From NCBI GenBank assembly GCA_017473085.1, contig JAFUNF010000020.1, positions 21,523 through 85,522 of the forward strand: a DNA stretch of 64,000 nt. Reading direction: 5' to 3'. This document shows, piece after piece, positions 19,067 to 48,390 of the stretch (position 1 is its first letter; the number at the start of each line of letters is the position of its first letter). Position numbers and translations under genes: made by a program. Below the pieces are notes generated by a model. That model was not told where the DNA came from and made no database searches. It worked only from the letters and a program-made list of their open reading frames with translations. The DNA is from Clostridia bacterium. GTDB lineage: Bacteria > Bacillota > Clostridia > Oscillospirales > CAG-272.

Positions 19067-19069
19067 CTA

Positions 19070-30112: not shown

Positions 30113-30457
30113 CGTGTTCTGTTGAAGATGGTCATCTATCTTTGCCTTGTGTCGCCACAAGGCTCCGCAAAATTGCGTGCCACCCAAGAGAATAGCAAAG
30201 CTTTATCGGGCAAATAAAAATCCTCTTATGCGGTGTTGCTTCGGATAGGGTTTACACCTACTCTATGTTACCATAGAATATCGTGAGCTCTTACCTCACG
30301 TTTTCATCCTTACCTAAAAAGGCGGTAATTTTCTGTTGCACTTTCCCTAAGGTCACCCTCGGCTGACGTTATCAGTTATCCTGCCCTATGAAGCACGGAC
30401 TTTCCTCACACTACTACCTTTCGGCGTGATAGTGCGCGACCATCCAACTTAGTTCCC
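30092..30457 (-). ncRNA. rnpB: RNase P RNA
   Basis: The minus strand carries the universal blocks GAGGAAAGTCCGTGC, GGGAAAGTGCAACAGAAA, GTGAGGTAAGAGCTCACG, GTAAACCC, AGATAGATGACCATC and ACAGAACACGGCTTAT. P1 pairs GAACTAAGT (5') with ACTTAGTTC (3'). A consensus promoter lies just upstream. Ends are +/- a few nt. Confidence 0.93.
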
Positions 30458-33835: not shown

Positions 33836-36823
33836 TTATTCGCCTAATGTAAGGCTATCGTAGTAGTAGCAAACCTTTGTCCAAGAGCCCTCAACCTGGA
33901 AGGAGAACTTGTCGATAAGCATTTGAAGAAGCTCTGCAAGCTCCTTATCAACTGCTACACAGCCCTGAAGCTCTGGATAGTCTGGGTCGTCAATTAGCTT
34001 ATCTAAATATGCACTAATTTCGTCAGTCATATCCTCGCCAGTGCCGTGGTAGATGTTGTTTTGAATATCGTCAAGCTGATAGAACTCGTACCAGTACTCG
34101 TAGTCAGTACCCCAAGCCTCCTTAAGGTCGTCAAGGGTATTGTTTTGAAGTAGCGTGTAAGCGTAGTTATCGTGCTCTGTCATCTTGAAGTTGAACGCAC
34201 CATTAGTAATCATTTGCTTAAGTGAGTTAGATGGGAACATATTTGTTCCAAAGTGGAAGTCTGCATATACAATTGAGCCAAGACTTCCGTCCTCTAACTT
34301 ATGATGGTAGTAGCCATCCTCACCAAGTGCAACATCAATACCACCAACGATTAGGTCGCCTACTGTGCCATCAAGAGTTTCCTCGTAGGTAAATACACCT
34401 GAGGATGCAGCTCTGAAGTGGTCAAAGGACTCGCCAAGATACTTAACGTTAAAGGTAAAGGAGCCTGTTGCATATACGTCGTAGTATGCAAGGTCAATAT
34501 AGTAGGTCTTACCTGCCTCTAAGAGAGCAACCATTGAAATGTTGGTGTAATCTCTTACAAGCTGACCATTTTCATTTTCAACAAGAAGCTCAGTGCAATA
34601 TCTTTCGCCCTGGTCACCATCTGTATAAAGGAATCTGTCGCCATTTGCAATCCACTCATCGTGGCTACCTGTAAAGATCCAGCCTACAACCTCCTGTGAG
34701 CTATTTGAGGTAAAGCGATATACACCACCAACAGTTGGTGTAAATGCGTACATATAGCCTCTTGGCATAATTACTCTGTCATAAGAAAAGTCGTAGCTTT
34801 CAGACTCAAGCACATTGTTGTCAGGATTTTCTTCATCAATTACAGGTGTAAAGTCGATTACAGGTGCGCTGAAGGAAGCAAGACCTGAAATAACGTCACC
34901 CAATTGCTCAGCAGGATTGCCGTTTTCGTCCTTACCATATACATCATAGTAGGAGCATAGACGGAGCCATGCATTTTCATTGTAAATGAATGCGTTTTGC
35001 TTTGCAAACTCGTCAAGCAAGTCCTTAAGCTCAGGAGTTACAGAGCAATAGCCGTAAATCTTTGCGTTTGCCGCATAGTTACAATATTGAACGAGTGTGT
35101 CAAACTTATTTACTCCGTCAACCATAAAGATTCCTGCACTTGTTACATCGTCAAAGGTTTCGTAAATCTTCATAGAGAGTGAGTATTCATTTGAGAAGTT
35201 TGAATAGTTTAGTAGGCTTGCCATAAGGATTGGTCCGTCCTCAGTGCCTACGTGATAGTAGCCATCGCTACCAAGCACAACAGTTACATATTGTGTATAG
35301 TCTGTGTTATTTTCGTTTGGCTTTGTTGCTGCCTCACGTGGCACGTATGCCTCAACGTCAAGGTCGTCCTTATTTACAATTTCAAAATTCTTAATATGAA
35401 CTGCGTCCTCGCCGTAGCCGTCAGATACGTCCTTTTGGAAAAGAAGCACGATATCGTAAACTCCGTCCTCATTAGCTACATAAGCACCACACTTTTCCCA
35501 ATCCTTGTTAAGTGAGGAAATAGCATAAATGTCCTCGCCGTCAACAAGCACGTAGAAATAATCGTAGGTAGGTTGCATTGAAGCAAAGTATTCAAAGGTA
35601 ACTGCCTCGCCTGCCTTCAAGCTGACCTTTGCGTGAAGGATTGAGTAGGAGGAATCCTTACCTGTGTTAGAGGTTGTAGCGTAGCCCTTTTCTGAATCAA
35701 TGATAAATGGCCACGCATACTCTGCGTCACTTGTGCCCTGTTCTGCCTCAAATGTGAAGCTGTCCTTTTGCTCCTCATTCTTAACTAAGAGGTCCTTAAG
35801 TTGCTCGTAGTGGTCCTCTGGAAGCTCAACGTCAGGCTTTTCAACAGGAATAAGCTCGCCAATATTTTCCTCAGTTACAAGCTTTTGAGTATAGTCGTCT
35901 GCTGTGTAGTATTCAAAAAGAGTTGTAAAGTGTCTTTCACTTGGAAGTGCACCTAAGTAAATCATTGTAATAACACCATAGCGGTCAATCATTACAGATA
36001 CAGGGTTACCCCAAGAGTCCCCATAAAGTCTTTCAAATGGGTCCTCAACAGGATTTGTTTGATTATCCTTAGCAATTGGGAAGGAAAGCTTTAAATCCTC
36101 TTGCTCCTCGCCCTCTGGTAGTGGATAGTACGCATAATATCTGTCCTTAAACTCATTTACAAAGGCCTGAACAGCAAAAATGTCCTCGGTAGAGTTACCA
36201 TTAATAGCAATTACATCGATTTTGTCCTTGTACTGCTGATATGCGTTTTCAAGGTCAGGGAACTCACCGATACAATATGTACAGGTTGTGTACCAGAAGT
36301 TAAGTAAAACTGCCTTCTTTTCCTTTAGCACCTCGGAAAGAGTCCATGTGCTACCGTCAACTAAGGTCACAGAAAAGTCGTGAATGATGTCGCCTGTGTT
36401 ATAGGTAACGTTTGTTGTATCGGTGTCCTCAATTACACCAGAGGTAAGCACAATGCTTGTACCTGTTGAGTTCACAGGATAGCTTTCATTTACCTTGTAG
36501 CCAGCTGGCACATCGCTTAGCTTAGCAACATAGTTGGATTTTTGAGCAACCTTAAAGGTAGCAATACCGTTTGCATCAGTTCTTACTCCCTTGCTTGCCA
36601 ACTTTCCATCGGAATAAAGCTCAACTAAAACGTCCTTTAGCTTAAAGCCACCAATAGATTTAATTTCAATGGTATAGGTGCCTTGCGTACCTGTTGTGTC
36701 GCCACTTCCCGAGCCTGTTTCCACAGGTGGATTGTTATTTCCATTACAGGAAACCATTTGAAGTAGCATAGTACCAAGCATAAGCACTACCAAAATGATA
36801 GACAATACTCTTTTAAATTTCAT
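33836..36823 (-). CDS. Large lipoprotein with TlpA/ResA-like thioredoxin domain
   Basis: 995 aa with lipobox MVSCNG. It has a prealbumin-like N-domain and a thioredoxin-like segment ..KAVLLNFWYTTCTYCIGEFP.. (CxxC). Two DGYYH + C.(V/L)..EL modules follow. Confidence 0.85.
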   Translation of the reverse strand: MKFKRVLSIILVVLMLGTMLLQMVSCNGNNNPPVETGSGSGDTTGTQGTYTIEIKSIGGFKLKDVLVELYSDGKLASKGVRTDANGIATFKVAQKSNYVAKLSDVPAGYKVNESYPVNSTGTSIVLTSGVIEDTDTTNVTYNTGDIIHDFSVTLVDGSTWTLSEVLKEKKAVLLNFWYTTCTYCIGEFPDLENAYQQYKDKIDVIAINGNSTEDIFAVQAFVNEFKDRYYAYYPLPEGEEQEDLKLSFPIAKDNQTNPVEDPFERLYGDSWGNPVSVMIDRYGVITMIYLGALPSERHFTTLFEYYTADDYTQKLVTEENIGELIPVEKPDVELPEDHYEQLKDLLVKNEEQKDSFTFEAEQGTSDAEYAWPFIIDSEKGYATTSNTGKDSSYSILHAKVSLKAGEAVTFEYFASMQPTYDYFYVLVDGEDIYAISSLNKDWEKCGAYVANEDGVYDIVLLFQKDVSDGYGEDAVHIKNFEIVNKDDLDVEAYVPREAATKPNENNTDYTQYVTVVLGSDGYYHVGTEDGPILMASLLNYSNFSNEYSLSMKIYETFDDVTSAGIFMVDGVNKFDTLVQYCNYAANAKIYGYCSVTPELKDLLDEFAKQNAFIYNENAWLRLCSYYDVYGKDENGNPAEQLGDVISGLASFSAPVIDFTPVIDEENPDNNVLESESYDFSYDRVIMPRGYMYAFTPTVGGVYRFTSNSSQEVVGWIFTGSHDEWIANGDRFLYTDGDQGERYCTELLVENENGQLVRDYTNISMVALLEAGKTYYIDLAYYDVYATGSFTFNVKYLGESFDHFRAASSGVFTYEETLDGTVGDLIVGGIDVALGEDGYYHHKLEDGSLGSIVYADFHFGTNMFPSNSLKQMITNGAFNFKMTEHDNYAYTLLQNNTLDDLKEAWGTDYEYWYEFYQLDDIQNNIYHGTGEDMTDEISAYLDKLIDDPDYPELQGCVAVDKELAELLQMLIDKFSFQVEGSWTKVCYYYDSLTLGE

Positions 36824-37012: not shown

Positions 37013-37054
37013 AACAAAAAAGGCTATCGCAAAAGCAATAGTCATTCTCGTTTA
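37013..37054. repeat. Direct repeat copy A (degenerate terminator segment) bounding the islet
   Basis: aacaaaaaaggctatcgcaaaagcaatagtcattctcgttta matches 40516-40557, differing by 2 substitutions and 2 single-base indels. Confidence 0.75.
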
Positions 37055-37086
37055 TCATTTACTTGTTTTTTTGTAGAGCCACTAAT

Positions 37087-37129
37087 CAATTGTCAATCCT
37101 TTGGAGACGAGGAACTGTCCCTTGTCTTC
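37087..37129. repeat. MITE-like repeat family, right-arm fragment
   Basis: caattgtcaatcctttGGAGACGAGGaactgtcCCTTGTCTtc. Confidence 0.7.
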
Positions 37130-37155
37130 TTTCCCCGTCTTTTTTTGGTGTCACC

Positions 37156-37977
37156 TTATTTGATTCTTATTAAGATTGAGTCTACTAATCTTGGCATATA
37201 TGTTGATGCTCCAACGCCAATAATTTGTGGTTCGCACTTCTTTTTAGCACTGTTGAGGTAAGTAGCTAAAGAATAACAGCGAACACAATGGTTGTAATAA
37301 GTTTTGATAGGCTCATCGTATGAAGCATTAGCATTTTGTATAGACAACTTGCTTTTTAAAAAATTTCTTTCCGAATCGGTTATTTCAAGCCAATCCGACG
37401 AAGAAACCGTTTCAACTTGAAAAATGCGATTCACTCTGCCCGAATAAAGTCCGATACCACCTGCCAATGATAATGAATCAATAATAAAAAACACATTTGG
37501 ACACATAAAGTGTAGGAATTTACTGCAAAAAGAAACGACGTTTTCGCTTCCATCTCCCATAGAATCTTTTATCATATTATTGAGAAGGTTTACACAATAC
37601 ACGCAATCATTCAAAATGGATATATCATGCCCAAAGGTAAATGAGTATGTTTTTGAATTCAAATTATCCAACTTATCATACAGTTTTTTATAATCAGGAT
37701 GATTTACGATTGAATTAGCTATTTTATCAAATGATAGTCCTAATCCTTCACTCTTCACAAGTGAAGTGGCACTTCTTGTAGGATCAGCAGAGTATGCTTT
37801 TCCGATAATCCAAATTGCACTGCTAAGCTTTCCAACATTGTATGTAGTATCCGACGGATGAGGCATAATGCTGAAATTAAAGCTCTTGTACAATACCTCA
37901 TTTCCATAGACATAATTGATTTTATTGACTTCATCAACATGTTTCAAAAATTCGTTTTCCGTAAATGCTATGGGCAT
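37156..37977 (-). CDS. Hypothetical protein (273 aa)
   Basis: Clean ORF with a GGAGGG RBS in A+T-rich DNA. No family recognised with confidence. Confidence 0.7.
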   Translation of the reverse strand: MPIAFTENEFLKHVDEVNKINYVYGNEVLYKSFNFSIMPHPSDTTYNVGKLSSAIWIIGKAYSADPTRSATSLVKSEGLGLSFDKIANSIVNHPDYKKLYDKLDNLNSKTYSFTFGHDISILNDCVYCVNLLNNMIKDSMGDGSENVVSFCSKFLHFMCPNVFFIIDSLSLAGGIGLYSGRVNRIFQVETVSSSDWLEITDSERNFLKSKLSIQNANASYDEPIKTYYNHCVRCYSLATYLNSAKKKCEPQIIGVGASTYMPRLVDSILIRIK

Positions 37978-38030
37978 ATTTGTACCCTCCTATTTGTTTC
38001 TTTATAATTTATGTGATGTTTTTTTAGAAA

Positions 38031-38160
38031 GATAGGGGATGTGGTATGTCTTTTCCCCTGTCGGCAAGCCGAGACATTGAGTGCCAAAAGGCACCCTTGT
38101 CTCTTTTTTGAGTTAATTAAATATCAATCCTTTGGAGACGAGGAACCGTCCCTTGTCTCC
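38031..38160. repeat. MITE-like repeat, full-length copy (~130 bp)
   Basis: The left end is gataggggatgtggtatgtc and the core is ctgtcggcaagccgagac..gtgccaaaaggcac..gttaattaaat. The right end is a hairpin, GGAGACGAGGaaccgtcCCTTGTCTCC. Confidence 0.8.
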
Positions 38161-38513
38161 ACGTTATCCACCTCTGTTATAAATATTCCAAATTGCTCAT
38201 TATCTTTTGTAGAGCCAAATTGTTCTGCTGTGGTATAGTACTCCAAAGTTAAAAATTGTTCATCTATTTCTATTTCAGATGGTTCTTTGAGCATAATTTC
38301 ATTAAAAATTTTCAATAAAACGGTGCGTTCTATTTTTTCTTTTTCACAACTAAAATCTATATGTGATTTTTGAAAGTTATCAATTTTCCAACTATAATCC
38401 TCTTTTTGTATCTGCTCCAGCTTTATTTCGTATTTATCACATACGCTATTAATTCGTTTAATTAATCTTGCAGTATTATCTTTGCAATGAATAATAAATC
38501 CACTAATTTTCAT
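38124..38513 (-). CDS. Hypothetical protein (129 aa); the last 11 codons lie in the repeat
   Basis: The ORF ends ..ETRDGSSSPKD*, with the tail and the TGA stop supplied by the MITE-like element. Confidence 0.6.
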   Translation of the reverse strand: MKISGFIIHCKDNTARLIKRINSVCDKYEIKLEQIQKEDYSWKIDNFQKSHIDFSCEKEKIERTVLLKIFNEIMLKEPSEIEIDEQFLTLEYYTTAEQFGSTKDNEQFGIFITEVDNVETRDGSSSPKD

Positions 38514-38547
38514 TTATGAGTATACGTCCTTTCCATGATACATTAAT

Positions 38548-38568
38548 GAGAGACGATTCCTTGTCTCC
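38548..38568. repeat. Short derivative of the repeat hairpin
   Basis: gagagacgattccttgtctcc. Confidence 0.4.
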
Positions 38569-39192
38569 TCATTCAGAAAAATCATGATATTCACCAAAAT
38601 ATGTATCGATAAATGATGTCCAATTCTCCTTTGTATTGTTAATATATTTATCATCAACTCCTTGATTTTCTTCATAGAATCCAATAAAACATAAGGAGTG
38701 ATTTTCGTCATTATAACTTGCCATTGTGAAAAATGTTGGCACCTTAGCATAATGATGTATTTCCAGAAAATTAATATTTCTGTAGAACTTGTAGTTGCCA
38801 TAGGTGTATATTTCCTCATTTTCGATAGGAATTTCTTCCAACATACATTCTTTTGCTAAAGCATATGTTTCTTCATCGTACTTTAAAAATATTAAACTGA
38901 TTGTAGGAGCTCCATTTAATTTAGCTGGATCTTCTTCATAAAAACTATATTTACCCTCTAAATATTCAAAATCTCTCAAAAAACTCTGAGTTGGCAAAAA
39001 ATATTCTGGGTCATCAATTTCGTACACAGAAAATCCAGAATTGCTTCTTGGATCTTCAATTTTTTCAATGTATTCGTCCAAAGACGAATAATTGTAATCT
39101 ACATAGCAAGATGTCAAACAAAAAACTAAGATTAGCATTAGTATAAAAAAGTAATTATAAATTTTTTTCATTTTTGATTTTTCTAACTCCAT
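38569..39192 (-). CDS. Hypothetical lipoprotein (about 200 aa)
   Basis: Signal peptide with an LTSC lipobox. The start could be 39192 or the ATG at 39171. A+T-rich. Confidence 0.7.
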   Translation of the reverse strand: MELEKSKMKKIYNYFFILMLILVFCLTSCYVDYNYSSLDEYIEKIEDPRSNSGFSVYEIDDPEYFLPTQSFLRDFEYLEGKYSFYEEDPAKLNGAPTISLIFLKYDEETYALAKECMLEEIPIENEEIYTYGNYKFYRNINFLEIHHYAKVPTFFTMASYNDENHSLCFIGFYEENQGVDDKYINNTKENWTSFIDTYFGEYHDFSE

Positions 39193-39202
39193 TCTAATAA
39201 GC

Positions 39203-39307
39203 GAGACAGGTTTAAAACATAGAACGGTGATATGTCTATTTTCCTTGTCCCTTTTTCAGTTAATTAAACGTCAATCCTTTGGAGACGAGGAAGTGTTCCC
39301 TGTCTCC
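39203..39307. repeat. MITE-like repeat, shorter copy (~105 bp)
   Basis: gagacagg..ggtgatatgtc..cagttaattaaacgtcaatcctttGGAGACGAGGaagtgttCCCTGTCTCC. It lacks the gtcggcaag..ggcaccc core. Confidence 0.8.
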
Positions 39308-39322
39308 GTTAGAGCCTTCAAT

Positions 39323-39709
39323 TTAAGTGTTTTTATTTTGTATTTTTCTCAATTCTTTTATAATCCATTTAAGAGATTCTATAAATTCTTCATCATCTTT
39401 CCAAGAGAAGAACTTCACTCTGTTTTTTCGATCAATTTCTAAAATTTCAGTAGCATCTGTCAAATGTTCAAAATCCAATGAGTCGACTAAAATAATTTTT
39501 CCTTGCTGATCTATAGCAGAAAAGCTCAAATAAATTATCTTTGGATACTTTTCCTTCTTCGCATCCATTGCTTCACCGATAGATATATCAATCGAATATC
39601 CCAACAGTTTCGCCAAAGAACTGATTTCCAAAAAATATTCGCTATTTTTTAAAATTTGAATTTCATTTTTGCAGTAATAATCAAGAGTTTGCATTACGCT
39701 TTGATTCAT
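39323..39709 (-). CDS. Hypothetical protein (128 aa)
   Basis: Clean ORF with a GGAGAA RBS that ends 16 nt before the repeat. No family recognised. Confidence 0.65.
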   Translation of the reverse strand: MNQSVMQTLDYYCKNEIQILKNSEYFLEISSLAKLLGYSIDISIGEAMDAKKEKYPKIIYLSFSAIDQQGKIILVDSLDFEHLTDATEILEIDRKNRVKFFSWKDDEEFIESLKWIIKELRKIQNKNT

Positions 39710-39748
39710 ATTATATTCTCCTTAAATTCCACCAAATTCACCGACCTA

Positions 39749-39803
39749 CAGTTCCAGCAACTTCCAGGGGAGACAGGAAATCTCCCCTGTCTCCATGGAA
39801 CTG
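39749..39803. repeat. Solo palindrome derived from the repeat terminus
   Basis: CAGTTCCAgcaacttccagGGGAGACAGGaaatctcCCCTGTCTCCaTGGAACTG. Confidence 0.6.
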
Positions 39804-39832
39804 CCTGCTTATTCATATACGTTAAATTGTGG

Positions 39833-39910
39833 TTGATTTTCTGTCGGCAAGCTAAGACGTTGGGTGTCAAAAGTCAATTTTATCAAAGCTTTTTCATTTT
39901 CATTTTAACA
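39833..39910. repeat. Repeat core fragment plus a 36-bp segment duplicated at 40462-40497
   Basis: ttctgtcggcaagctaagacgttgggtgtcaaaag, followed by caattttatcaaagctttttcattttcattttaaca. Confidence 0.6.
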
Positions 39911-40060
39911 CAAAGACAGGGGACGGTGGTGCAAAGACAGGGGACGGTGGTGTGTCTTTTTCTCTGTCGGTAAGCTGAGACGTTGGGTGTCAAAAGGCAC
40001 CCTTGTCCCTTTTTCAGTTAATTAAATGTCAATCCTTTGGAGACGAGAAGCTGTCTTCTG
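39911..40060. repeat. MITE-like repeat, full-length copy with duplicated left end
   Basis: caaagacaggggacggtggtg occurs twice in tandem (39911-39931 and 39932-39952). The core follows, then a degenerate right arm, ggagacgagaagctgtcttctgcc. Confidence 0.8.
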
Positions 40061-40391
40061 CCTTCTGTAACAGCATTTTTGCTGAAAAGCAAATTGTTGA
40101 ATCATCCGAAATATCAATTATTCTTTTTAAAACAAAAATAGCTTGCTTAACTAAAATTTCCATCTGCAAACAGAAAGAAGCTGCATTGACTTTTACCCTG
40201 TCATCTTCGTGATTAAGCAACATATACAATATATCTTCACTTGGATTTTGATTCATTTCATTCTGTAACTTATTGAGTTTTTTGGAAGCTTCATTATGCT
40301 TTTTAACTTTTAGTTTATTCGCATAGTCGTTTTTAGTACACTGTTGTAACGATAATTCCACAAATAAATTATAGTAATCTTTCATACACAT
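40029..40391 (-). CDS. DUF2019-like small helical protein (120 aa); tail in the repeat
   Basis: The pattern ..FVELSLQQ...NKL..K....SKKL......EDILYMLLNHEDDRVKVNAASFCLQ... resembles the DUF2019 family (from memory). The ORF ends ..SFSSPKD* inside the repeat. Confidence 0.6.
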   Translation of the reverse strand: MCMKDYYNLFVELSLQQCTKNDYANKLKVKKHNEASKKLNKLQNEMNQNPSEDILYMLLNHEDDRVKVNAASFCLQMEILVKQAIFVLKRIIDISDDSTICFSAKMLLQKAEDSFSSPKD

Positions 40392-40421
40392 ACCTTACAT
40401 AAACATCTTAATAACGTTAAT

Positions 40422-40497
40422 GGAGACAGGGGACTGTTCCTTGTCTCCTATTTCCGAAAGACAATTTTATCAAAGCTTTTTCATTTTCATTTTAACA
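40422..40497. repeat. Solo terminus palindrome plus the second copy of the 36-bp segment
   Basis: GGAGACAGGGgactgttCCTTGTCTCC (40422-40448), then caattttatcaaagctttttcattttcattttaaca (40462-40497). Confidence 0.6.
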
Positions 40498-40515
40498 TAA
40501 CAATTTAACTGTGTC

Positions 40516-40557
40516 AACAAAAAAAGGCTATCGCAAAAGCAATAGCCATCTTGTTTA
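40516..40557 (-). terminator. Intrinsic terminator of the 301-aa gene; also direct repeat copy B
   Basis: On the minus strand: GGCTATtgcttttgcgATAGCC followed by TTTTTTT. The 42-bp segment is repeated at 37013-37054. Confidence 0.7.
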
Positions 40558-41460
40558 GTTTGAGCCTGGAATTTGTGATACACCACTTAGCTCTGTGTGA
40601 GTATAGTCCTCGCTTGTAAAGAAAGCGAAAAGGCTTTCCAATTGGCTTTCACTTAGTGCGCCCTCGTGGATAAAGGAGATTACTCCATATCTGTCGATTA
40701 CAACAGTTGCAGGGTTGGAGCTAAAGCCAAAGGCATTTTCTATTCCTTGGTTGTCAATTGCAAGGGGTAAGGTCAAGTCAGGCACGTCAATTGGACTTGC
40801 CTCGGTGTTATTGTACTTATTGTAAACTGTATCAAAATTAGCAATAAAATTATTTATGCTTACTTGATTGTTTACAGAGTTAAGACCGATAAAGCCTGCT
40901 TTTTGGGAATGCTGGTCATATACCTTGTTCATATCGGGAAATTCCTTTACACAAAATGAACAGGTTGTGTACCAGAAGTTTAGCATAACCATTTCCTTGT
41001 CCTCAAGGATTTGAGAAAGGGTTAAGGTGTTGCCATTTTGGTCGGTCACAGTAAAGTCGTGCATAATATCGCCTAACTGATAACGAACATTTTCGTGGCT
41101 TTCGTTTATAAGCTGTGTTGTTAGTAAAATTTCAGTATTTGTGCCACCCAGTGTATAGCTTTCGCTATATTGATAGCCCTTTGGCACATCAGAAAGCAAA
41201 GCCGTTTTTGCTTCCTTTTCAAGATTTTCTACTGCTACTCGTCCGTTTTCATCGGTTGTCTTGTAATCCAAAAACTCTCCGTTTTCGTCTAAAAATTCAA
41301 CTGTTACATTTTGCAAAATCTTTCCTGTATCTGTTTTAATATCAACAACGTAGGAAAAGGTGCTTGGTGTAGGTGGTGGATTTTCCTCATTGTTACAGCC
41401 TACCAAGAAAAGCAAGGTAGTCAAGGCTAACACAAGGGAAATACATAAAAGCTTTTTCAT
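40555..41460 (-). CDS. Lipoprotein with TlpA-like thioredoxin domain (short paralogue of 33836..36823)
   Basis: 301 aa with lipobox LVGCNN. ..MVMLNFWYTTCSFCVKEFP.. (CxxC). It is collinear with aa 1-~300 of the 995-aa protein. Confidence 0.85.
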   Translation of the reverse strand: MKKLLCISLVLALTTLLFLVGCNNEENPPPTPSTFSYVVDIKTDTGKILQNVTVEFLDENGEFLDYKTTDENGRVAVENLEKEAKTALLSDVPKGYQYSESYTLGGTNTEILLTTQLINESHENVRYQLGDIMHDFTVTDQNGNTLTLSQILEDKEMVMLNFWYTTCSFCVKEFPDMNKVYDQHSQKAGFIGLNSVNNQVSINNFIANFDTVYNKYNNTEASPIDVPDLTLPLAIDNQGIENAFGFSSNPATVVIDRYGVISFIHEGALSESQLESLFAFFTSEDYTHTELSGVSQIPGSN

Positions 41461-41483
41461 TTCAATTCTCTTTTCTTTTTTTA

Positions 41484-42710
41484 TTAAAGCTTATTTTTTA
41501 GCTTTCTTCTTATTTTTGAGCCTTTTTTAAAAAGTCTAAGTCCAACGGAGTAAGCAAGCTTGCTATGGAAGATTTTTTGTCCTAAGCTTACCCTTCTTTT
41601 TGGTATAGCGATTACGGCGTTTTTGTCTTGCTTTATGCTTTTGCCCATTTGGGTGTTCATATACTCAATTACGCCTGCTACGTATGCATCCCTTTTATCG
41701 TAATTTACAGACACTTCCCCGCTTCTTTTTGAAATATCGTAAAGCATACTGTCAACTACGTCAAAGTTATCTCCTAAGAGTCCGTTTGCAATATAGCCCA
41801 CCTCGTCCTTGGGTCTTGATACCTCAAGTACCTCAACTCCATAGGCTTCCTTAATTACACTCTCAAGCTGTGGTAGCTCCAAGGATTTTGCAGTTGTATA
41901 TTGTACTCTTGACATTAGCTTGCCCCACTCACAAATACCTTCTTGTAGCTCAACTTCTGCGTTTTCCTTCATAAGTTTAATTGTTTTTGCCATTGAGTTG
42001 ATTTGTGAAAGTAGTCTTTTTTCGCAATTGTCAATATAAGTGCTTTGCTCATCGTGAACACGATAAAAGTAGTACCCTGTGTGGATATTTGATAGCTTTT
42101 TAGCATTCTTATAAGCAAAGAAGTTTAAAAGGGTGTCCTCGCTATAACCCATTCTTTCCATTATAGCATCAGTTTTTTCAAGCTCCCTTTTTGCTTGAAG
42201 AAGAAGTGATTTTTTATACACCTTATTCCACAAAACAAATAAGCTATGATATTTACCCTGTGCACCTGTAAAGTATTTGATAATTTCCTCATTTTCAAGG
42301 CAAAGGTCGTTTTTAATTGTAATATCGTCCTTAGGGTAAGCCTTTCCGTTTTTGCTATGGAATGCCCAATCATTTATAACTATATCGCAATTTTCTTCTA
42401 TTGCCTTTTTGAGCATTGGTGCGTAATAGTTTACTGATGCTGTATCGTCAGAATCGCAAAAGGCAACGTATTCCCCCTTAGCAATCATTAAGCCATAAAG
42501 ACGGCTTGCTAAGTGTCCTCTGTTGTCTGTTTTTACGTAGGTTGGCTTATAGTATTCCACAAGCTGTGAGTAATCCTGTGTTGAGCCATCGTCAATTACT
42601 AAAATCTCATAATCCTCCTTGTTAAGAGTGGATTTTGTAATTGAGGAAAGGCAATCCTTTAAATACTCTTTTTTAGTGTTGTAAAGACAAATAATTATAC
42701 TGAGCTTCAT
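41484..42710 (-). CDS. Family 2 glycosyltransferase
   Basis: 408 aa with MKLSIIICLYN.., VIDDGSTQDY and FCDSDD (DxD) motifs. Confidence 0.9.
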   Translation of the reverse strand: MKLSIIICLYNTKKEYLKDCLSSITKSTLNKEDYEILVIDDGSTQDYSQLVEYYKPTYVKTDNRGHLASRLYGLMIAKGEYVAFCDSDDTASVNYYAPMLKKAIEENCDIVINDWAFHSKNGKAYPKDDITIKNDLCLENEEIIKYFTGAQGKYHSLFVLWNKVYKKSLLLQAKRELEKTDAIMERMGYSEDTLLNFFAYKNAKKLSNIHTGYYFYRVHDEQSTYIDNCEKRLLSQINSMAKTIKLMKENAEVELQEGICEWGKLMSRVQYTTAKSLELPQLESVIKEAYGVEVLEVSRPKDEVGYIANGLLGDNFDVVDSMLYDISKRSGEVSVNYDKRDAYVAGVIEYMNTQMGKSIKQDKNAVIAIPKRRVSLGQKIFHSKLAYSVGLRLFKKGSKIRRKLKNKL

Positions 42711-42849
42711 TTTTCTCTCCCGATTTGATTTTCTTCATATATTTTAACATTTCAAGGCTAAATTGTCAACAGATTATAGAGCCACATAAGGAATATTTTG
42801 TCGATTTTAGTAAACTAAAATTTCTTTTGGTTAAAATTACCTATTTTTA

Positions 42850-42878
42850 TTGACTTTTAGTACGTTTTATATTATACT
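42850..42878 (+). promoter_or_regulatory. Candidate promoter of the glycoside hydrolase gene
   Basis: TTGACT, 17 nt, TATACT. The leader contains a hairpin, AAGAGCATACCCgtaGGGTATTCTCTT (42885-42911). Confidence 0.5.
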
Positions 42879-42944
42879 ATCCCTAAGAGCATACCCGTAG
42901 GGTATTCTCTTATAACACGTTTTTCGCAAGGAGATTTCAAAAAA

Positions 42945-44912
42945 ATGAAGCCACAAAAAATCAGAGTAACTCCAGATATGCTTATCAACGATATGGGCAT
43001 TGAAAGGATTGAAAACTTTTTCTGTGAGTTTGACAATGACGGCGACCCTCTATATGGCATTGAGGGACAAAAGCCACAGGTACACCCAAGACACGACCAC
43101 TGGTGGGTTGGACAGACTGATTTAGCATTTACTGTTGATTTGGGTGCTATCTATCAAATTACAAATATGTACATTTACAACGACTACGACGAATACAAGC
43201 CTGAAAAGGATAAGCACGACTATGGTGTTCGTAAGGTTAAGGTTAAGATGGGTACTCCATTTAGCTGGGAATACAACGAGGAGCTTGCTCCCGAGGTTAG
43301 AAAATGGACTGGCTTTGAAACAAGCTACAAGACCCAATATATTAACTTCTCCTTCAATAATAACCAAGCACCAAGTGAAATTCTTATTTACGGCTACAAG
43401 GTTGAGGACGTTGAGAATATTATACCTGAAAGAAAGCCACATAAAAAATCAAAGCTTACACACTTCGTTGGTATGAACGCATTCATTAACGATGCTGACG
43501 ATATTAACCGTGCAGTTACTTATATTCGTGAGTACCACCCTTGGACCTGGACCTGTGAGGGCGAGGGCTCTGACGTTTCCATTTCTATGAATCCATCTCT
43601 TAACAAGATGTGGGACTTCGACGATTACTACACAAGACTTCACAAATATGGCATTAGCGTATGCCCTACACTCTCCACACACAGTAAGAGATTACCTAAG
43701 GACGGTGTTGAGCCAAGTGACGACCCAAGCAACTTCTTGTCCTATGCTTCAATGCTATTCCAATTTGTTGCTCGTTATGGTAGCAATAAGGATATTGACC
43801 CTGAGCTTATTAAGGTTGGCGAGGGACAGGAAAAGAAAATCGGTCTTGGCGTATTAAACGCCCTTGAGCCACTAAATGAGCCTGACGGCACATGGCTTGG
43901 CAGAGGTCAATACTTCTCTCCATTTGAAATGGCAGCGCTTCTCTCTATCTGCTACGACGGACACGAGGGCAAGTTTAAAAACGCAGGCGTTAAGCAGGCT
44001 GACCCTAACTTCTTTATGTCTATGTCAGGTGGTGCAGGCTTGCACCTTGGCAGACTCCGTGCTATGCAATTCTGGTGCAAGTACAACAGAAAGGACGGAA
44101 AATTGCCATTTGATGCTATCAATGCTCACTGCTACTGCGGTAAGAGTGTTGACAAGGAAGGTATCATTGCTCTTGTCGACGTAAATATTGACGACAGAGA
44201 CGCACTTAGCGAAAAGGTTTACGTTGGTGTCAGCCCAGAGGAAGGCGATATTTGTGGTCGCTTCGCTGATATTATGGATTGGCGTGACAGATACTATCCA
44301 GATATGGAAATTTGGCTAACTGAATTTGGTTGGGACACTAACCAAAGCTACAAGACCTCAACCTCATCTCACGCCTATGGCAAATACACAGGCAGACAGG
44401 TACAGGGTATGTGGCTTGTACGTGAGTATTTGCTCCTTACCTCTATCGGTGTTGAAAGAGCTGCTATGTATATGTCAAGAGACTGTGGTCCTGAGGAGCA
44501 CGCAATTGGTAAGTATGGCTCTTCTGGTCTTGTAAGATACCCAATTGAAATCTCAGCAAACAACGTAATTATGGGTAATAAGAAGGACTCCTTCTATTAC
44601 GTATATACAACAAAGGAAATTCTTAAGGACACCTACTTCGATTGCGAGGTTGACTCTGGCAACGAAAACGTTAAAATCTTTAAGTACGTAACAGACGAGG
44701 GCGAGGCAAAATATGCAGTTTGGTGCCCAACCTCTAACTCCACCGAGGTTAAGGACTTCAAGCTCCACGTTGGTCACGGCGACTTTATTCTTGCTCAGCT
44801 TGAATTTGAGCGTTACAACGGCTTACGCACCGACCTTGTGGAAGAAAACGGCTACGTAACAATCGACGTTTCCGAAAAGCCTGTCTTTGTAATCCCAAAG
44901 CCAGCAAAATAA
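42945..44912 (+). CDS. Clan GH-A-like glycoside hydrolase with N-terminal discoidin/CBM-like domain
   Basis: 655 aa. A candidate acid/base lies in LNALEPLNEPDG and a candidate nucleophile in IWLTEFGWD. No signal peptide. The family is not assignable by eye. Confidence 0.7.
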   Translation: MKPQKIRVTPDMLINDMGIERIENFFCEFDNDGDPLYGIEGQKPQVHPRHDHWWVGQTDLAFTVDLGAIYQITNMYIYNDYDEYKPEKDKHDYGVRKVKVKMGTPFSWEYNEELAPEVRKWTGFETSYKTQYINFSFNNNQAPSEILIYGYKVEDVENIIPERKPHKKSKLTHFVGMNAFINDADDINRAVTYIREYHPWTWTCEGEGSDVSISMNPSLNKMWDFDDYYTRLHKYGISVCPTLSTHSKRLPKDGVEPSDDPSNFLSYASMLFQFVARYGSNKDIDPELIKVGEGQEKKIGLGVLNALEPLNEPDGTWLGRGQYFSPFEMAALLSICYDGHEGKFKNAGVKQADPNFFMSMSGGAGLHLGRLRAMQFWCKYNRKDGKLPFDAINAHCYCGKSVDKEGIIALVDVNIDDRDALSEKVYVGVSPEEGDICGRFADIMDWRDRYYPDMEIWLTEFGWDTNQSYKTSTSSHAYGKYTGRQVQGMWLVREYLLLTSIGVERAAMYMSRDCGPEEHAIGKYGSSGLVRYPIEISANNVIMGNKKDSFYYVYTTKEILKDTYFDCEVDSGNENVKIFKYVTDEGEAKYAVWCPTSNSTEVKDFKLHVGHGDFILAQLEFERYNGLRTDLVEENGYVTIDVSEKPVFVIPKPAK

Positions 44913-44925
44913 TTAACCAATAATA

Positions 44926-44960
44926 AAACAAATCCGTGCTTCTCAGCACGGATTTTTGTT
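44926..44960. terminator. Bidirectional intrinsic terminator
   Basis: aaaacaaATCCGTGCTtctcAGCACGGATttttgttt. Confidence 0.7.
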
Positions 44961-44962
44961 TC

Positions 44963-45469
44963 TTAGGCGTTTAAATATTCATTGCATTTATCGGAAAAAC
45001 TTTTCAACCTTTTGGTTTGCCTTTCATATACCCGAAACATTGCCAATCGGCAAGTTGGATGTGCAGACCAAGAAATTATTTTCTTAGTACTATTTCTAAA
45101 ATTAATATCAATGGTAAACAATTTTTTCACTTGCATGCCATCAGACACAGTTATACTTATCAGACTATCCAAGGACAATTCTTCTTTTTTAAATCCAAAA
45201 CTTTCTCTAACTATCAATTTATTGCTCTCTACATCTAAGCATATGTAGGTTTTAAAAATCGTGAAATACATAAATACACAATAAGAAATCATTAAAAGCA
45301 AAAGAATAATCATAGCACCTTTTCTTTCGAACCCCAAAATCAAACCGACTATTGGAATAGCAGTTAAGAACAAAGCAGAAAATATTCCCAATATTCTTTC
45401 TAATATTGGCATTTGGTAAATAATAATTTTCTTATTCAAATTTTGTCTTTTTAAGTTCTTACCATCCAT
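44963..45469 (-). CDS. Hypothetical membrane protein (168 aa)
   Basis: Two TM helices followed by a soluble beta-rich domain, possibly bacterial PH-like (weak inference). Confidence 0.6.
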   Translation of the reverse strand: MDGKNLKRQNLNKKIIIYQMPILERILGIFSALFLTAIPIVGLILGFERKGAMIILLLLMISYCVFMYFTIFKTYICLDVESNKLIVRESFGFKKEELSLDSLISITVSDGMQVKKLFTIDINFRNSTKKIISWSAHPTCRLAMFRVYERQTKRLKSFSDKCNEYLNA

Positions 45470-45601
45470 ATCCCAATAACTCCACTAATTTCTTCAGGGT
45501 TAAGGCTAAACGTCTCAGCACTTTGATAATGATAATAATCACGGATTTCCAAATGCCTTTCGCTGTCATTACTATAATTAAACCTTTTTCCTCTACTATT
45601 A

Positions 45602-46336
45602 TCATTTATCTTTTGAAAGCGAGGAAGTGTTCCCTGTATTTTTTGTTGATTTTTTAATTAGCGTTAATATAACGCCAAATGCAACAGCCAGTCCTATGAC
45701 AAAAGCTACAAAAAGAATCCCTATGATTATTCCCTGTGAATTTGGCTGGCTTGATACATCATATATGGTTTTTGTTACGTTATCCTTTGTTATATCAACC
45801 TTAGAATAATTCGCACCAAAAAAATTGTAGCCCGTTGCCTCGTATAGCACTCCGTTAATTTCTTGCTTGTCAGCGTCAAACTCTCTTCTAATTATCGAGC
45901 TTGTATCAGTTGTATCAACAATATTAGCAACACATTGTGCTCGTGCAAAGCTATCAACAGAAACTAACACATCACTTCTTATAAAATAAATTACAACATT
46001 ATCTCCATCCCATTTCATTCGAAACGTTCCACTGCATTTGAATTTATATCCATACAAGAAATCGCCTCTGTCGTTATAGACGCATATCATTTTTTCATTT
46101 GAATTATTTACACCAATTGCGATTTTCCCATTTTCATTAGCACAAAAATACTCAAATGCAAATGGAGTTGGCTCTGTTGCAAATCTTCGTATTGACACCC
46201 TGTTCAAAAATTCTTGTGCTTGCTCATCTTCCATTTTTTCTATTTGTGCTTCGGTATTAATGTCGGTGCTTGCATACACAGTAATAGAAAAAAGTGCAGT
46301 TAAAATTATACATAGAATGAATATTTTCTTTAACAT
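45602..46336 (-). CDS. Hypothetical secreted/membrane-anchored protein (244 aa)
   Basis: Signal peptide and a C-terminal TM helix. The last 12 codons (NTGNTSSLSKDK*) are homologous to the repeat right arm. Confidence 0.65.
   Translation of the reverse strand: MLKKIFILCIILTALFSITVYASTDINTEAQIEKMEDEQAQEFLNRVSIRRFATEPTPFAFEYFCANENGKIAIGVNNSNEKMICVYNDRGDFLYGYKFKCSGTFRMKWDGDNVVIYFIRSDVLVSVDSFARAQCVANIVDTTDTSSIIRREFDADKQEINGVLYEATGYNFFGANYSKVDITKDNVTKTIYDVSSQPNSQGIIIGILFVAFVIGLAVAFGVILTLIKKSTKNTGNTSSLSKDK
45605..45637. repeat. Repeat right-arm relic embedded in the 3' end of a CDS
   Basis: The segment gcgaggaagtgttccctgt shares 18 identical nt (cgaggaagtgttccctgt) with copy 39203-39307. Confidence 0.5.
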
Positions 46337-46385
46337 TTTACCACTCTCCTATTTTCCAATTTATCCAATCAGTTGTTTCTAATAT

Positions 46386-46460
46386 AAGACAGGTGATGGT
46401 GGAGTGTCTTTTTTTCTGTCGACAAGTTGAAGATTGGGTTAAAAATGTGCCCTTGCTGGC
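46386..46460. repeat. MITE-like repeat, left end plus core fragment
   Basis: aagacaggtgatggtggagtgtctttttttctgtcgacaagttgaagattgggttaaaaatgtgcccttgctggc. Confidence 0.6.
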
Positions 46461-46462
46461 TT

Positions 46463-46885
46463 TTACAAAACGACCTTTGTTTTTGACAAAATATCAACGA
46501 TAGATAGGGTGTCGGACTTGAAAACTAAAAACACATCAGCAATAAAGAGAAAACGGCTTAGTCCTCTTATTAAGAGCTGTTTCTTTGTTGGCTTTTTTCT
46601 TTCAAGGCTCCTTGCATCCTCTATTCGCACCTTGCAAATTTTACAGCCTATGCTACCCTCCTTGGTAAAGAAATCCATCAAAACCATATACAATAAGCAC
46701 AGGGTAATTGAAAGAGCATAAAAGATAGCCTTAAATATGGCTTCGCTATTTTCCACGTTTTTCAATATTAATTGGACAACTGCCAAAAATGGCAATTCAG
46801 CCAATAATAAAAGTGGCACAATCAACATAAAAACAAGGGCGTCAGCTCTTCTTATCTTATTTCTTTCCCTATAAGTCAGTTTCAT
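46463..46885 (-). CDS. Hypothetical membrane protein, possibly RDD family (140 aa)
   Basis: TM helices plus a ..GSIGCKICKVRIED.. segment reminiscent of RDD-family proteins (weak). Confidence 0.55.
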   Translation of the reverse strand: MKLTYRERNKIRRADALVFMLIVPLLLLAELPFLAVVQLILKNVENSEAIFKAIFYALSITLCLLYMVLMDFFTKEGSIGCKICKVRIEDARSLERKKPTKKQLLIRGLSRFLFIADVFLVFKSDTLSIVDILSKTKVVL

Positions 46886-47005
46886 TTTTCCTCCGTGTGG
46901 AAAAGTGGCTTATTGACTCCACTCTGTCCTTGATTGCTTTAAATATTTTCAATCATTTTTCTAAATCAATTTTATCATATTTATCTATCAATGTCAACAA
47001 AATGC

Positions 47006-47042
47006 AAAAAAGCAAGCTACCCTTTGCAAAAGAGGGTAGCTT
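47006..47042 (-). terminator. Terminator of the WYL regulator gene
   Basis: On the minus strand: GCTACCCTCttttgcaaaGGGTAGCttgctttttt. Confidence 0.6.
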
Positions 47043-47046
47043 AGAT

Positions 47047-48066
47047 TTATTTAGTTGACCTTTTTTCTTTTGGTGGGGTGTCGCCTTCGTAGTTTTTTTG
47101 CATACTGTTTGCAAAATCACGAAGCTGGTCGCGCATTTCTTGTGGCTCGATTACGGTTGCCTTGTGGCCGAAGCGAATTGCCCAACGCAAAACGTCCTCA
47201 CGGCTGGCTCTTGTGCGAATTATAATTCGTGAGTCACGAAGTCCGTTTATTCTAAAATTCTTGCCGAAGGCATCAATTACCTCGCCAATCAGGTCCTTGT
47301 CGATGGCAAGGGTTATATCAAGCATTTCCCCTGATAGCATATAGGGGTGAGAATATATGTAGTCGTCTATTTTCTCATCTGCCCTTTTTCGTGGGGACGC
47401 AAGAATACAAAGGCTTGTTATTTTATCAACTCGGTAGCCATTTAGCTCCTCTCGTTCGTTGCTTGCAATTAAGTAGTAATGTCCGTGTGACATAACTAAA
47501 CGATAGGGGCTTACTACTACCCTTTCAATTGGGTGAAGGGCTTTGTCTATGCCATAGTCGTTTCTTACAAATTCAACCTTCAGGTTTTGTGACATAGCCT
47601 CGTTTAGTTGGGCTATGGTATTGAAAAGGTCCTTGTTGTCGCTTTTGTCAAAGGTATCAAGGGTATGTATGTTTCTTGCCTCGGATTTAAAGTGCTTACT
47701 TGTCAGGCTACATAGCTTATTTATTATCTTTCTTGTGCTCCCTGTGTCTATACATCTGCTTGCTAAAACAAGGTCGATAAGCAAGCACAGCTCTGCCTCG
47801 GTTAAGTCCTTGCCACAGGAGTCGTAATAAGCTCCCTTTGTGGTTTTGAAAACTCCTATGCCACTTGACTCTAAGTCTCCAAGATAATTACTAATTGCCT
47901 TTCTTTCAAGTAGAATATTATACTCTACCTCAAGTAAATTGGAGATTTCAGCTTGGGTCAGCATTTTCGCCTCGGAAAGCTTGCCACTTGGAGAGGGTCT
48001 TGTATGCTTTTTTAAAATATGAAAAATTCTTAGGCACGCCATTCGCTTAGTTTCATTGCTTGCCAT
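47047..48066 (-). CDS. WYL-domain transcriptional regulator (wHTH-WYL-WCX architecture)
   Basis: 339 aa with an N-terminal wHTH (..LTQAEISNLLEVEYNILLERKAISNYLGDLESSG..). The central WYL-like strand motif is ..VVVSPYRLVMSHGHYYLIASNEREELNGYRVDKITS... The C-terminal segment is ..RWAIRFGHKATVIEPQEMRDQL... Transcribed divergently from the helicase operon. Confidence 0.85.
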   Translation of the reverse strand: MASNETKRMACLRIFHILKKHTRPSPSGKLSEAKMLTQAEISNLLEVEYNILLERKAISNYLGDLESSGIGVFKTTKGAYYDSCGKDLTEAELCLLIDLVLASRCIDTGSTRKIINKLCSLTSKHFKSEARNIHTLDTFDKSDNKDLFNTIAQLNEAMSQNLKVEFVRNDYGIDKALHPIERVVVSPYRLVMSHGHYYLIASNEREELNGYRVDKITSLCILASPRKRADEKIDDYIYSHPYMLSGEMLDITLAIDKDLIGEVIDAFGKNFRINGLRDSRIIIRTRASREDVLRWAIRFGHKATVIEPQEMRDQLRDFANSMQKNYEGDTPPKEKRSTK

Positions 48067-48390
48067 ACATATCTCCCCCTCTCTTAAAAATTTTTAGAAC
48101 ACCATACAGAGTAAAAAATCTGTGATATACAATACATTTCTAACAATCCTAATATAACATATATGAAGATATAATTCAACTATATTTTTATATTAAACAT
48201 TAATATTTTTAGGTCAATGTACCATTTTTGATACATTGAAGCCTATAAAATGGTAGTAAAGCCTGAAAAATTGGGCGATTTTTGTCAAGTACAAGCTTCG
48301 AAGAATATATGGCTACATTATTTATGTGCAATAGTTGGTTTGTTTTGCACTATTTAACAGATTAAAAACAGTTTTTTATAGGAGGTACTT

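Follow-up and report, generated by a model that had tools for sequence, protein, structure and literature searches.

Hairpin repeats in small-gene islands of a Clostridia bacterium: probable REP-like elements of a RAYT transposase system

A 64-kb stretch of DNA from a Clostridia bacterium of the order Oscillospirales (NCBI GenBank assembly GCA_017473085.1, contig JAFUNF010000020.1, positions 21,523 to 85,522 of the forward strand), which we will call the window, contains a family of short palindromic elements. Most probably, these elements are hairpin repeats that resemble repetitive extragenic palindromic (REP) sequences and that belong to a REP-associated tyrosine transposase (RAYT) system of the TIRYT/TIRtron type, whose enzyme is a Y1 HUH transposase that is related to IS200 and has a C-terminal helix-turn-helix (HTH) domain. 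We assign the elements to a RAYT system because their termini match the terminal inverted repeats (TIRs) around RAYT genes. A first-pass annotation of the window, made from the DNA sequence alone, had described a non-autonomous family like the miniature inverted-repeat transposable elements (MITEs). The elements do seem to be non-autonomous, with inverted termini, but they are of the REP/TIR type of a RAYT (TIRYT) and not MITEs of a DDE transposase, and they show no target-site duplications.

The hairpin unit and its cognate transposase

The unit that is common to all of the elements is the 13-mer AGACAGGGGACGG, which forms the 5' arm and the loop of an imperfect hairpin of 25-27 nt. The 13-mer is conserved in many Clostridia, while the 3' arm of the hairpin is variable. 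The hairpin has a Y form (AAGACAGGGGACGGTGGTGTGTCTT, with the variable 3' arm ...TGGTGTGTCTT) and a Z form (GGAGACRAGGAACNGTCCCYTGTCTCC, with the 3' arm ...TTCCTTGTCTCC). The Z form can also be written as GGAGACAGGGGACGGTTCCTTGTCTCC, and the window holds the reverse complement of this, with minor changes. Across genomes, the sequence of the loop shows as much conservation as the stem. At its foot, the hairpin reads (A)AGACA or GGAGACA; CGTC is present only inside the loop and the 3' arm, not as a head. The first pass had also noted that the stem pairs better in plus-strand RNA (a G-U pair) than in minus-strand RNA (an A-C mismatch). This asymmetry is not conserved: the commonest hairpin elsewhere has its wobble on the opposite strand and at a different pair.

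When folded as single-stranded DNA (ssDNA), a full copy of about 130 bp consists of three hairpins in alternating orientation, each with an AGACA...TGTCT foot. The repeat unit that was originally described is therefore real, but it is a cluster of three related hairpins instead of one palindrome; we will call it a composite. Composites have stable ssDNA folds on both strands (z-scores of -4.4 and -4.1), and the folding energies of single 25-27-nt hairpins range from -2 to -9 kcal/mol. The ends of a composite carry units in opposite orientation, without a transposase between them, which gives the composites the terminal-inverted-repeat character that had been suspected. The flanks of the three full copies (tagaa/acgtt, aacac/tgtaa, and taagc/gttag) show no target-site duplication and no constant tetranucleotide; the lack of direct repeats there fits the expectation for HUH enzymes.

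A scan for the palindrome pattern, in one genome per species, returned 42 loci (we refer to loci outside the window by number, such as L014). About 25 of the 42 are from metagenome-assembled genomes (MAGs) of gut or rumen Clostridia/Eubacteriales, with a GC content of 0.34-0.54 and a nearly invariant GGAGACAAGGAACCGTCCCCTGTCTCC; the high-GC matches look like chance. The first-pass annotation had called the family local, which is true only inside the window, and had left room for there being no copies elsewhere; copies are present in other MAGs and in L045 (see below). Because copies are found on other scaffolds and in other MAGs, the family is not purely the product of local duplication. In these loci, the 13-mer is found as singles, as inverted pairs, and in tandem arrays, including nine units of 16-18 nt in L014, and L035 contains three copies of the composite core from the window. 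In a scan of metagenomes, using a collection that is poor in this lineage, the composite core had 0 matches and the Y hairpin had 3, one of which lies beside the N-terminus of a RAYT.

The tandem arrays of the 13-mer (L014 1362-1515, L015 5560-5735, and L045 3737-3945) have a period of 16-30 nt and six to nine copies, and such arrays often lie just 5' of the transposase gene or of a small gene. Also, L004 contains a module of ~130 bp that is repeated before two different small genes (3266-3400 and 4023-4160). This module comprises a promoter (TTGACA..TATACT), a leader of about 60 nt, and a Z hairpin.

At two of the loci (L004 and L011), 13-mers in inverted orientation bracket an open reading frame (ORF) of ~250 aa. 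The encoded protein matches Y1_Tnp from Pfam (E = 3e-16) and the NCBIfam model for REP-associated tyrosine transposases (NF047646, 87.7 bits with a cut-off of 80). On the IS200 model (NF033573), it scores 18.3 bits, which is below the cut-off of 55. It has both an HUH motif (HVH, in CLMGNHVHLL) and a tyrosine motif (RYIHQNP). Near the C-terminus of the protein from L011 there are matches to HTH_28 (residues 218-249, E = 8e-4) and HTH_23 (E = 1.6e-3), both of which are under Pfam's gathering scores, and the C-terminal HTH tail (..GMSIRQISRLTGETKGMVEKWLK) is conserved in all copies. These properties of the enzyme were measured on proteins from related loci, not on proteins from the window. The ORF has over 7,800 homologs with E <= 1e-10, one of which was named RayT by JGI. 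Many of the homologs are on contigs of ~1 kb, as expected if flanking repeats break assemblies.

We fetched the genomic contexts of four homologs and mapped the 13-mer; together with L004 and L011, this gave 14 loci in which the gene is complete or nearly so. The bracketed arrangement is present in 12 of the 14, including L004 and L011, or for 7 of the 8 distinct proteins. For instance, in L045-L052, the gene is preceded, within ~70-340 nt, by one to seven plus units and followed, 17-37 nt past the stop codon, by one minus unit; L053 and L054 have the downstream unit only. The TIRs contain the motif GGGGACGG, which is the GGGGWSAS consensus with one mismatch, or GGGGACAG in L022, L026, and L034. 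An identical RAYT protein (P0074) is found in at least two unrelated contexts: the downstream flank of L047 differs from those of L049 and L050, starting precisely where the TIR has its outer end, and the number of upstream units is 1 in L049, 3 in L050, and 5 in L047. In the loci that we examined, we saw no DDE transposase that has these ends, and the Y1 enzyme is the sole recurrent neighbor. (An IS110 gene that adjoins a unit in L048/L049 is unrelated to the repeats.) In short, a transposase of the IS200/IS605 type with matching ends, which the first-pass annotation had proposed as a candidate partner, does exist, and it is a Y1 HUH RAYT.

One of these loci may be from the same organism as the window. 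L045 is scaffold_70 of ENA sample ERZ28654512, and the sequence of the window is scaffold_2486 of the same sample. L045 has a GC content of 0.34 and encodes a RAYT with seven upstream units. Read as its reverse complement, the downstream TIR (AAGACACACCACCGTCCCCTGTCTT) matches window positions 39934-39958 exactly (25/25), and L045 contains two copies of the composite core that are ~90% identical to those in the window (6299-6395 and 8500-8600). It is likely that the window and scaffold_70 are from one genome.

L045 also contains a remnant of a RAYT gene. Positions 6511-6597 encode just the C-terminal 29 residues of the transposase (86% identity) and are followed by the TIR (the span with the TIR extends to 6640). 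The remnant is preceded by a palindrome of the same type as window 39767-39794. L050 contains a similar C-terminal remnant of a RAYT. These remnants are deletion intermediates, partway from the full unit to the miniature composites. The composites in the window, whose end units are arranged as in the transposase-bearing unit, are miniature, non-autonomous derivatives of it, and we infer that the 130-bp composites are mobile.

In L045 (1-8753) and L051 (1-8750), the transposase unit lies directly after a gene for a ~2,000-aa toxin with RHS/YD repeats and its small downstream gene. These are two independent loci, and their RAYT proteins are only ~55% identical to each other. Around the units are RHS fragments and other small ORFs, a setting that resembles an array of orphan toxin and immunity genes.

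How would such an enzyme spread the repeats? A single-strand mechanism is established for the TnpA of IS200/IS605 and for TnpA-REP from E. coli. By analogy with these, the enzyme would recognize the folded hairpin on ssDNA, possibly aided by its HTH tail, which could read the conserved 13-mer. It would then cut and rejoin DNA beside the hairpin. This would move or copy hairpins, pairs of hairpins, and the DNA between them, without target-site duplication, and would yield new copies, inverted pairs, tandem units, and miniature composites.

TIRYTs, or TIRtrons, were described as RAYT-like genes that are flanked by TIRs instead of REPs with GTAG; many of their TIRs have GGGGWSAS, and TIR copies are single, dimeric, or clustered (Di Nocera et al. 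2013, PMC3733652). Most TIRYTs belong to subclass 2.1 of TnpA-REP, with tails that are similar to HTH_23, HTH_28, or DnaA_C, and no REP-like sequences were found near subclass 2.1 genes in that survey (Quentin et al. 2018, PMC6006769). These proteins fall in RAYT group 1, which has members in Clostridia and is more IS-like than any other RAYT group (Bertels et al. 2017, PMC5581495). A search for the motif itself (as a 12-mer) among the papers open to search found nothing relevant.

Our family resembles TIRYTs in having a Y1 HUH RAYT with a HTH_23/HTH_28 tail, inverted repeats with a GGGGWSAS-type motif, and repeat copies that are single, in dimers, or in clusters. It is also found in Clostridia, and the same protein is found in several contexts, as for an insertion sequence. 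Unlike the TIRs of TIRYTs, our repeats are themselves hairpins of 25-27 nt, as in REPs, and the family adds three-hairpin composites of ~130 bp, tandem arrays of 16-18-nt units, and a concentration in islands of small genes. We conclude that, at the level of sequence, the family fits the TIRYT/TIRtron class (RAYT group 1, or subclass 2.1), which is a known class, and that the repeats would be a newly described family within it.

The family also shares features with the REPs of Enterobacteria and Pseudomonas. These include short, imperfect, intergenic palindromes just past stop codons, with some ORFs that enter the repeat; Y and Z variants that alternate in orientation, with linkers, as in bacterial interspersed mosaic elements (BIMEs); inverted pairs, as in REPINs; and a cognate Y1 transposase that is flanked by the repeats. 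However, the foot of our hairpin lacks a GTAG/CGTC head, and our transposase has an extra HTH tail. IS200/IS605 elements and palindrome-associated transposable elements (PATEs) share the Y1 HUH core, the hairpins at the ends, the lack of target-site duplications, and the formation of miniatures by internal deletion. But the ends of our elements are inverted copies of each other, which is not the case for IS200/IS605; there is no TnpB partner; and the RAYT model gives the protein 87.7 bits, as compared to 18 from the IS200 model (cut-off 55).

To our knowledge, almost all work on RAYT/REP systems has been in Proteobacteria. The repeats are a new case of a known kind of selfish or domesticated element, and this work provides a sequence-defined repeat family for the HTH-tailed group of RAYTs in gut and rumen Clostridia. 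Because transposase-bearing units, deletion intermediates, and miniature composites are seen together, the origin of the small elements can be read from them. The conserved 13-mer could be used directly in binding or cleavage assays. Furthermore, the repeats probably fragment metagenome assemblies, and they mark strain-variable islands.

Repeat copies and small-gene islands in the window

To catalog the copies, we used repeat finding across the window, and we read 36.8-40.7 kb and 45.3-47.3 kb by eye. This recovered all ten copies or fragments that were initially reported; none are expected by chance. The repeat search identified five copies of the right part with its hairpin (37065-37127, 38096-38158, 39243-39305, 40001-40063, and 45577-45639), three copies of the composite core (38041-38108, 39824-39891, and 39947-40014), and left ends starting at 38028, 39934, and 46386. 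The reported tandem duplication of one left end is a 21-nt repeat (39911-39931 and 39932-39952, 100% identity), and the reported 36-bp duplication in the flanks extends to 44 bp (39870-39913 and 40457-40500, 95% identity).

Pattern scans of the window agree with this. The 27-nt palindrome GGAGACRAGG-N7-CCYTGTCTCC matches at 37103, 38134, 39281, and 40422, and a 22-mer from the left end matches at 39935 and 46387; for both, shuffled sequences gave an expectation of 0. The exact motif AGACARGGG has seven sites in the 64 kb, all within 37119-40432. We also built an nhmmer profile from eight composite copies, which does not cover the left part of the element. In the window, it found eight sites, namely seven of the ten known copies or fragments and a weak palindrome at 39769-39795, and no site beyond the earlier list. 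It did not recover 38548-38568 or 46386-46460, the latter of which lies mostly in the part that the profile does not cover. The copies at 38548-38568 and 45605-45637 are highly degenerate.

The copies are confined to two islands of small genes (37.0-40.5 kb and 45.6-46.5 kb), and all of the genes that neighbor the elements are on the minus strand. Island 1 contains five small ORFs between 37156 and 40391 (273, 129, 207, 128, and 120 aa), and island 2 contains three between 44963 and 46885 (168, 244, and 140 aa). The elements fill every intergenic gap of both islands. In seven of the eight genes, the stop lies inside an element or 0-26 nt short of one; the exception is the 168-aa gene, which has no 3' element.

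In island 1, the first element on the plus strand is a truncated composite at 37065-37129, with a T-run, a linker, and a Z hairpin at 37103-37129 (GGAGACGAGGAACTGTCCCTTGTCTTC); it lies 26 nt 3' of the stop codon of the 273-aa gene, which is on the minus strand, and adjoins a duplicated terminator (repeats, pattern, nhmmer). A full composite at 38028-38162 (+) has three hairpins, at 38031-38062, 38071-38103, and 38133-38161 (Z), and was also supported by folding (repeats, pattern, folding, nhmmer). The 129-aa ORF enters it by 37 nt and has the C-terminus ..SSSPKD*. The middle hairpin of this composite (38081-38110, +) contains GTGCCAAAAGGCAC within GAGACA..TGTCTC and is followed by T6. With T6, it scores as an intrinsic terminator for the plus strand only, which is antisense to all of the neighboring genes.

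Further along, a degenerate Z hairpin at 38548-38568 (+, GAGAGACGATTCCTTGTCTCC; repeats) directly adjoins the stop codon of the 207-aa gene. The composite at 39203-39308 (+), 15 nt past the stop of the 128-aa gene, has an internal deletion of the core; its left end is degenerate, and its linker and Z hairpin (39281-39307) are intact (repeats, pattern, nhmmer). At 39749-39803 (strand not assigned; repeats, folding) there is a variant palindrome, whose inner part (39767-39794, GGGGAGACAGGAAATCTCCCCTGTCTCC) is of the type that adjoins the RAYT remnant in L045. A fragment of the composite core without termini (CTGTCGGCAAGCTAAGACGTTGGGTGTCAAAAG) is found at 39833-39876 (+; repeats, nhmmer), and the full composite at 39911-40065 (+; repeats, pattern, nhmmer) is the one with the doubled Y left end (AAGACAGGGGACGGTGG..). 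The 120-aa ORF enters the degenerate Z hairpin of this composite and has the C-terminus ..SFSSPKD*. In other words, the 129-aa and 120-aa ORFs enter the Z hairpin in the same reading frame and have a common tail, SSPKD*. Lastly, a solo Z hairpin in inverted orientation (40422-40448, -; pattern, nhmmer) lies in the 5' leader of the 120-aa gene, downstream of promoter P1.

Island 2 (44958-47040, -; repeats, relatives) has its own terminator and promoter, the three small genes (140, 244, and 168 aa), and element fragments. These are a degenerate right arm within the 3' end of the 244-aa ORF (45605-45637, +; repeats, nhmmer) and a Y left end with a core fragment, 3 nt 3' of the stop of the 140-aa gene (46386-46460, +; repeats, pattern).

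The upstream boundary of island 1 (40489-40549, -; repeats, promoter and terminator prediction) comprises T1, which is the terminator of a 301-aa gene (40547-40526), and directly after it, P1 (40517-40489). P1 is the single strong promoter of the five-gene block (11/12 matches, with a TG). A second copy of the terminator, T1' (37041-37024, within 37014-37045, -; repeats, terminator prediction), lies at the other end, so the block has one promoter and one terminator. On the gene-sense side, the hairpins lack a T-run, so read-through is expected. The window copies would then be transcribed as intercistronic hairpins of an operon that runs from P1 to T1'. Part of P1 is duplicated as well: one copy of the 44-bp segment (39870-39913, -; repeats, promoter scan), whose partner is 40457-40500, contains the extended -10 (TGTTAAAAT) and the leader of P1 and is fused to the Y end of a composite. 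The repeated module in L004 parallels the arrangement of P1, the hairpin at 40422-40448, and this duplication.

Among close relatives, which we found via homologs of a 995-aa redoxin protein (we give amino acid identities), the contents of these sites vary. L070 (85%) and L057 (68%) have an empty site instead of island 1: the 301-aa gene, one terminator, a conserved leader (GTTAAATTTTAATGAA...), and the 995-aa gene. At this spot, L055 (87%) has an LRR_5 gene (7016-8722 of L055) and a degenerate hairpin, GACAGACAAGAAATAGTCCTTTGTCTCC. L056 (89%) has another gene, encoding 133 aa, and then two tandem Y units at the same junction; the unit past the stop codon is in opposite orientation. L055 also lacks island 2: where the window has 44958-47040, it has about 50 bp. 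So, the DNA that carries the elements is accessory, varies between strains, and lies at hot spots.

By comparison with L070, island 1 is 37046-40519 (~3.5 kb), inserted just past the T-run of the terminator. It is bracketed by a direct repeat of the terminator of ~33 bp (37014-37045 and 40517-40549, with the sequence ATG[G/A]CTATTGCTTTTGCGATAGCCTTTTTT(T)GTT), of which L070, with its empty site, has only one copy, the ancestral one. This repeat may be a long target duplication or the trace of recombination at the terminator.

We considered whether the island genes travel together with the hairpins, and we rejected this. tblastn with 12 proteins from the window found no matches in the 42 hairpin-bearing loci, and the hairpin motif is absent near homologs of the 273-aa protein in nine other loci. 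The other contigs with the 273-aa gene are 100% identical to the window, so there is no polymorphism among them.

The 273-aa protein (gene 37156-37977) is from a rare family, with 47 homologs among 5.8 billion proteins. Its homologs elsewhere (L061-L069) always have a partner gene of 160-173 aa, 12 nt later. The partner is missing from the window, where the hairpin element and the copy of the terminator follow the 273-aa gene instead.

Alternative explanations

Several observations weigh against the assignment of these elements to a RAYT system. tblastn with two RAYT proteins found no RAYT gene or remnant in the window, even in a permissive run. The window copies are found only in the two islands, ~5.6 kb in total, and none are in the remaining ~58 kb. 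In contrast, classical REPs are scattered genome-wide, although our count for the host genome covers only 64 kb and fragments from the sample. The hairpin foot does not carry the GTAG head of canonical REPs. A duplicated terminator, and not hairpins, marks the ends of island 1, which suggests that the transposase probably did not insert the whole island. We found no filled and empty pair of sites for a single 130-bp composite, and the basis for placing the window and scaffold_70 in one genome is limited to their common sample, common repeats, and similar GC. Also, we know of no biochemistry for any enzyme of the TIRYT type.

Could the hairpins be primarily RNA elements, such as sites of processing or of protection from 3' exonucleases, that were spread by selection for that role? 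We think this is quite unlikely, even though a gene-sense hairpin with AGACARGGGACGG lies 0-26 nt past the stop codon, or overlaps it, in seven of the island genes, and hairpins are similarly near stop codons in L014 and L045. The REPs of E. coli do stabilize mRNA, and the five-gene block has one strong promoter (40517-40489), one terminator (37041-37024), and expected read-through at hairpins that lack a gene-sense T-run. But a search of Rfam (the whole window at gathering thresholds, and 36.9-40.6 kb at E <= 1) found just RNase P RNA and two chance matches, so the hairpins are not a known RNA family. The conservation of the loop, which equals that of the stem, suggests sequence-specific recognition by a protein instead. 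Also against an RNA origin are the units in both orientations, the tandem arrays 5' of the transposase gene, and the unit past the stop codon in L056 that points the other way. Finally, an RNA role would explain why hairpins are retained, not where they come from, and it is compatible with a RAYT origin: stabilization or insulation of mRNA is possible as a secondary effect.

The 27-nt palindromes might instead be double-stranded core sites (10-7-10) for a site-specific recombinase, in which case the islands would be cassette arrays, like integrons or the pdif modules of Acinetobacter plasmids. As with attC or pdif sites, imperfect palindromes lie between small, promoterless genes in the same orientation behind a common promoter, and the content varies between strains. 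Each small gene stands alone with a palindrome at its boundary, the site at 40422 is inverted, and the spot differs in four relatives, with a hairpin at the junction of each non-empty version (the window, L056, and, in degenerate form, L055). Still, we consider this very unlikely. No transposase, integrase, or recombinase was identified by a Pfam scan of ~55 window proteins (essentially all ORFs of at least 110 aa), and the ends of the elements lack the GTTRRRY/RYYYAAC signature of attC, or R and L boxes. The recurrent neighbor of the repeats is a Y1 HUH transposase, with no integrase or Xer-type partner, and not a tyrosine or serine recombinase. Furthermore, homologs of the 273-aa cassette gene are hairpin-free at nine loci, and the boundary of island 1 is the duplicated terminator, not palindromes.

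A role for the hairpins in assembling the islands would also be conceivable with the HUH enzyme itself. Under this scenario, which we view as unlikely, the hairpins serve as junctions where small accessory genes are captured, shortened, duplicated, and rearranged, giving integron-like arrays by the action of an HUH transposase on ssDNA. There are hints of this: seven of the eight island genes end at or near an element, and two ORFs have the common ..SSPKD* tail; a promoter fragment is duplicated beside a hairpin; the spot is empty or has three different hairpin-associated inserts in close relatives; and two independent transposase units lie directly after an RHS/YD toxin gene and small downstream genes. 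The captured genes might possibly be immunity genes or orphan genes of polymorphic-toxin loci. However, the island proteins have no informative family match in Pfam, NCBIfam, or PADLOC beyond three weak ones (DUF2019 for the 120-aa protein, and sub-threshold matches to EbsA for the 168-aa protein and to RDD for the 140-aa protein), which leaves an immunity role unsupported. As with the recombinase, homologs of the 273-aa protein that lack hairpins and the terminators around island 1 argue against capture at the hairpins. If this scenario were true, it would be a new mechanism for the formation of gene arrays, but the present evidence does not favor it.

That leaves the idea of classical MITEs of a DDE transposase (such as IS630/Tc1-like), or else purely local duplication products. 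The small size, the terminal-inverted-repeat character, and the mosaic look of the region, with its fragments and the 44-bp duplication in the flanks, fit such origins. We give this the least credence, and consider it extremely unlikely: none of the three full copies has a target-site duplication, the only recurrent neighbor of these ends in the loci examined is the Y1 enzyme and not a DDE transposase, and a local origin does not explain the copies on other scaffolds and in other MAGs. REP-like repeats of a TIRYT-type RAYT remain the best explanation for the elements.

Neighboring genes in the window

Island 1 is flanked by two minus-strand genes whose products are paralogs, the 995-aa protein (33836-36823) and the 301-aa protein (40555-41460). 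They have prealbumin/SpaA-like and Redoxin/AhpC-TSA domains in common, and the pair is kept in the relatives.

Adjoining island 2, 47047-55809 encodes a WYL/WCX regulator, a SNF2-type helicase of 1,340 aa, a MoxR-like AAA ATPase, and two proteins with the metallopeptidase domain DUF2201_N, the second of which also carries a DUF2201 (VWA-like) domain. The helicase has weak matches in PADLOC to the helicases DrmD, DpdE, and BrxH, and L055 retains both the WYL gene and the helicase. This may be a defense-like gene cluster.

The remainder of the window is chromosomal housekeeping, such as PheST, SbcCD, and ABC transporters. There are no tRNA genes in the window; it does contain RNase P RNA of the bacterial class A (30092-30455, minus strand, 247 bits). 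Two large BspA-type proteins with LRR_5 repeats are encoded at 16880-21673, also on the minus strand.

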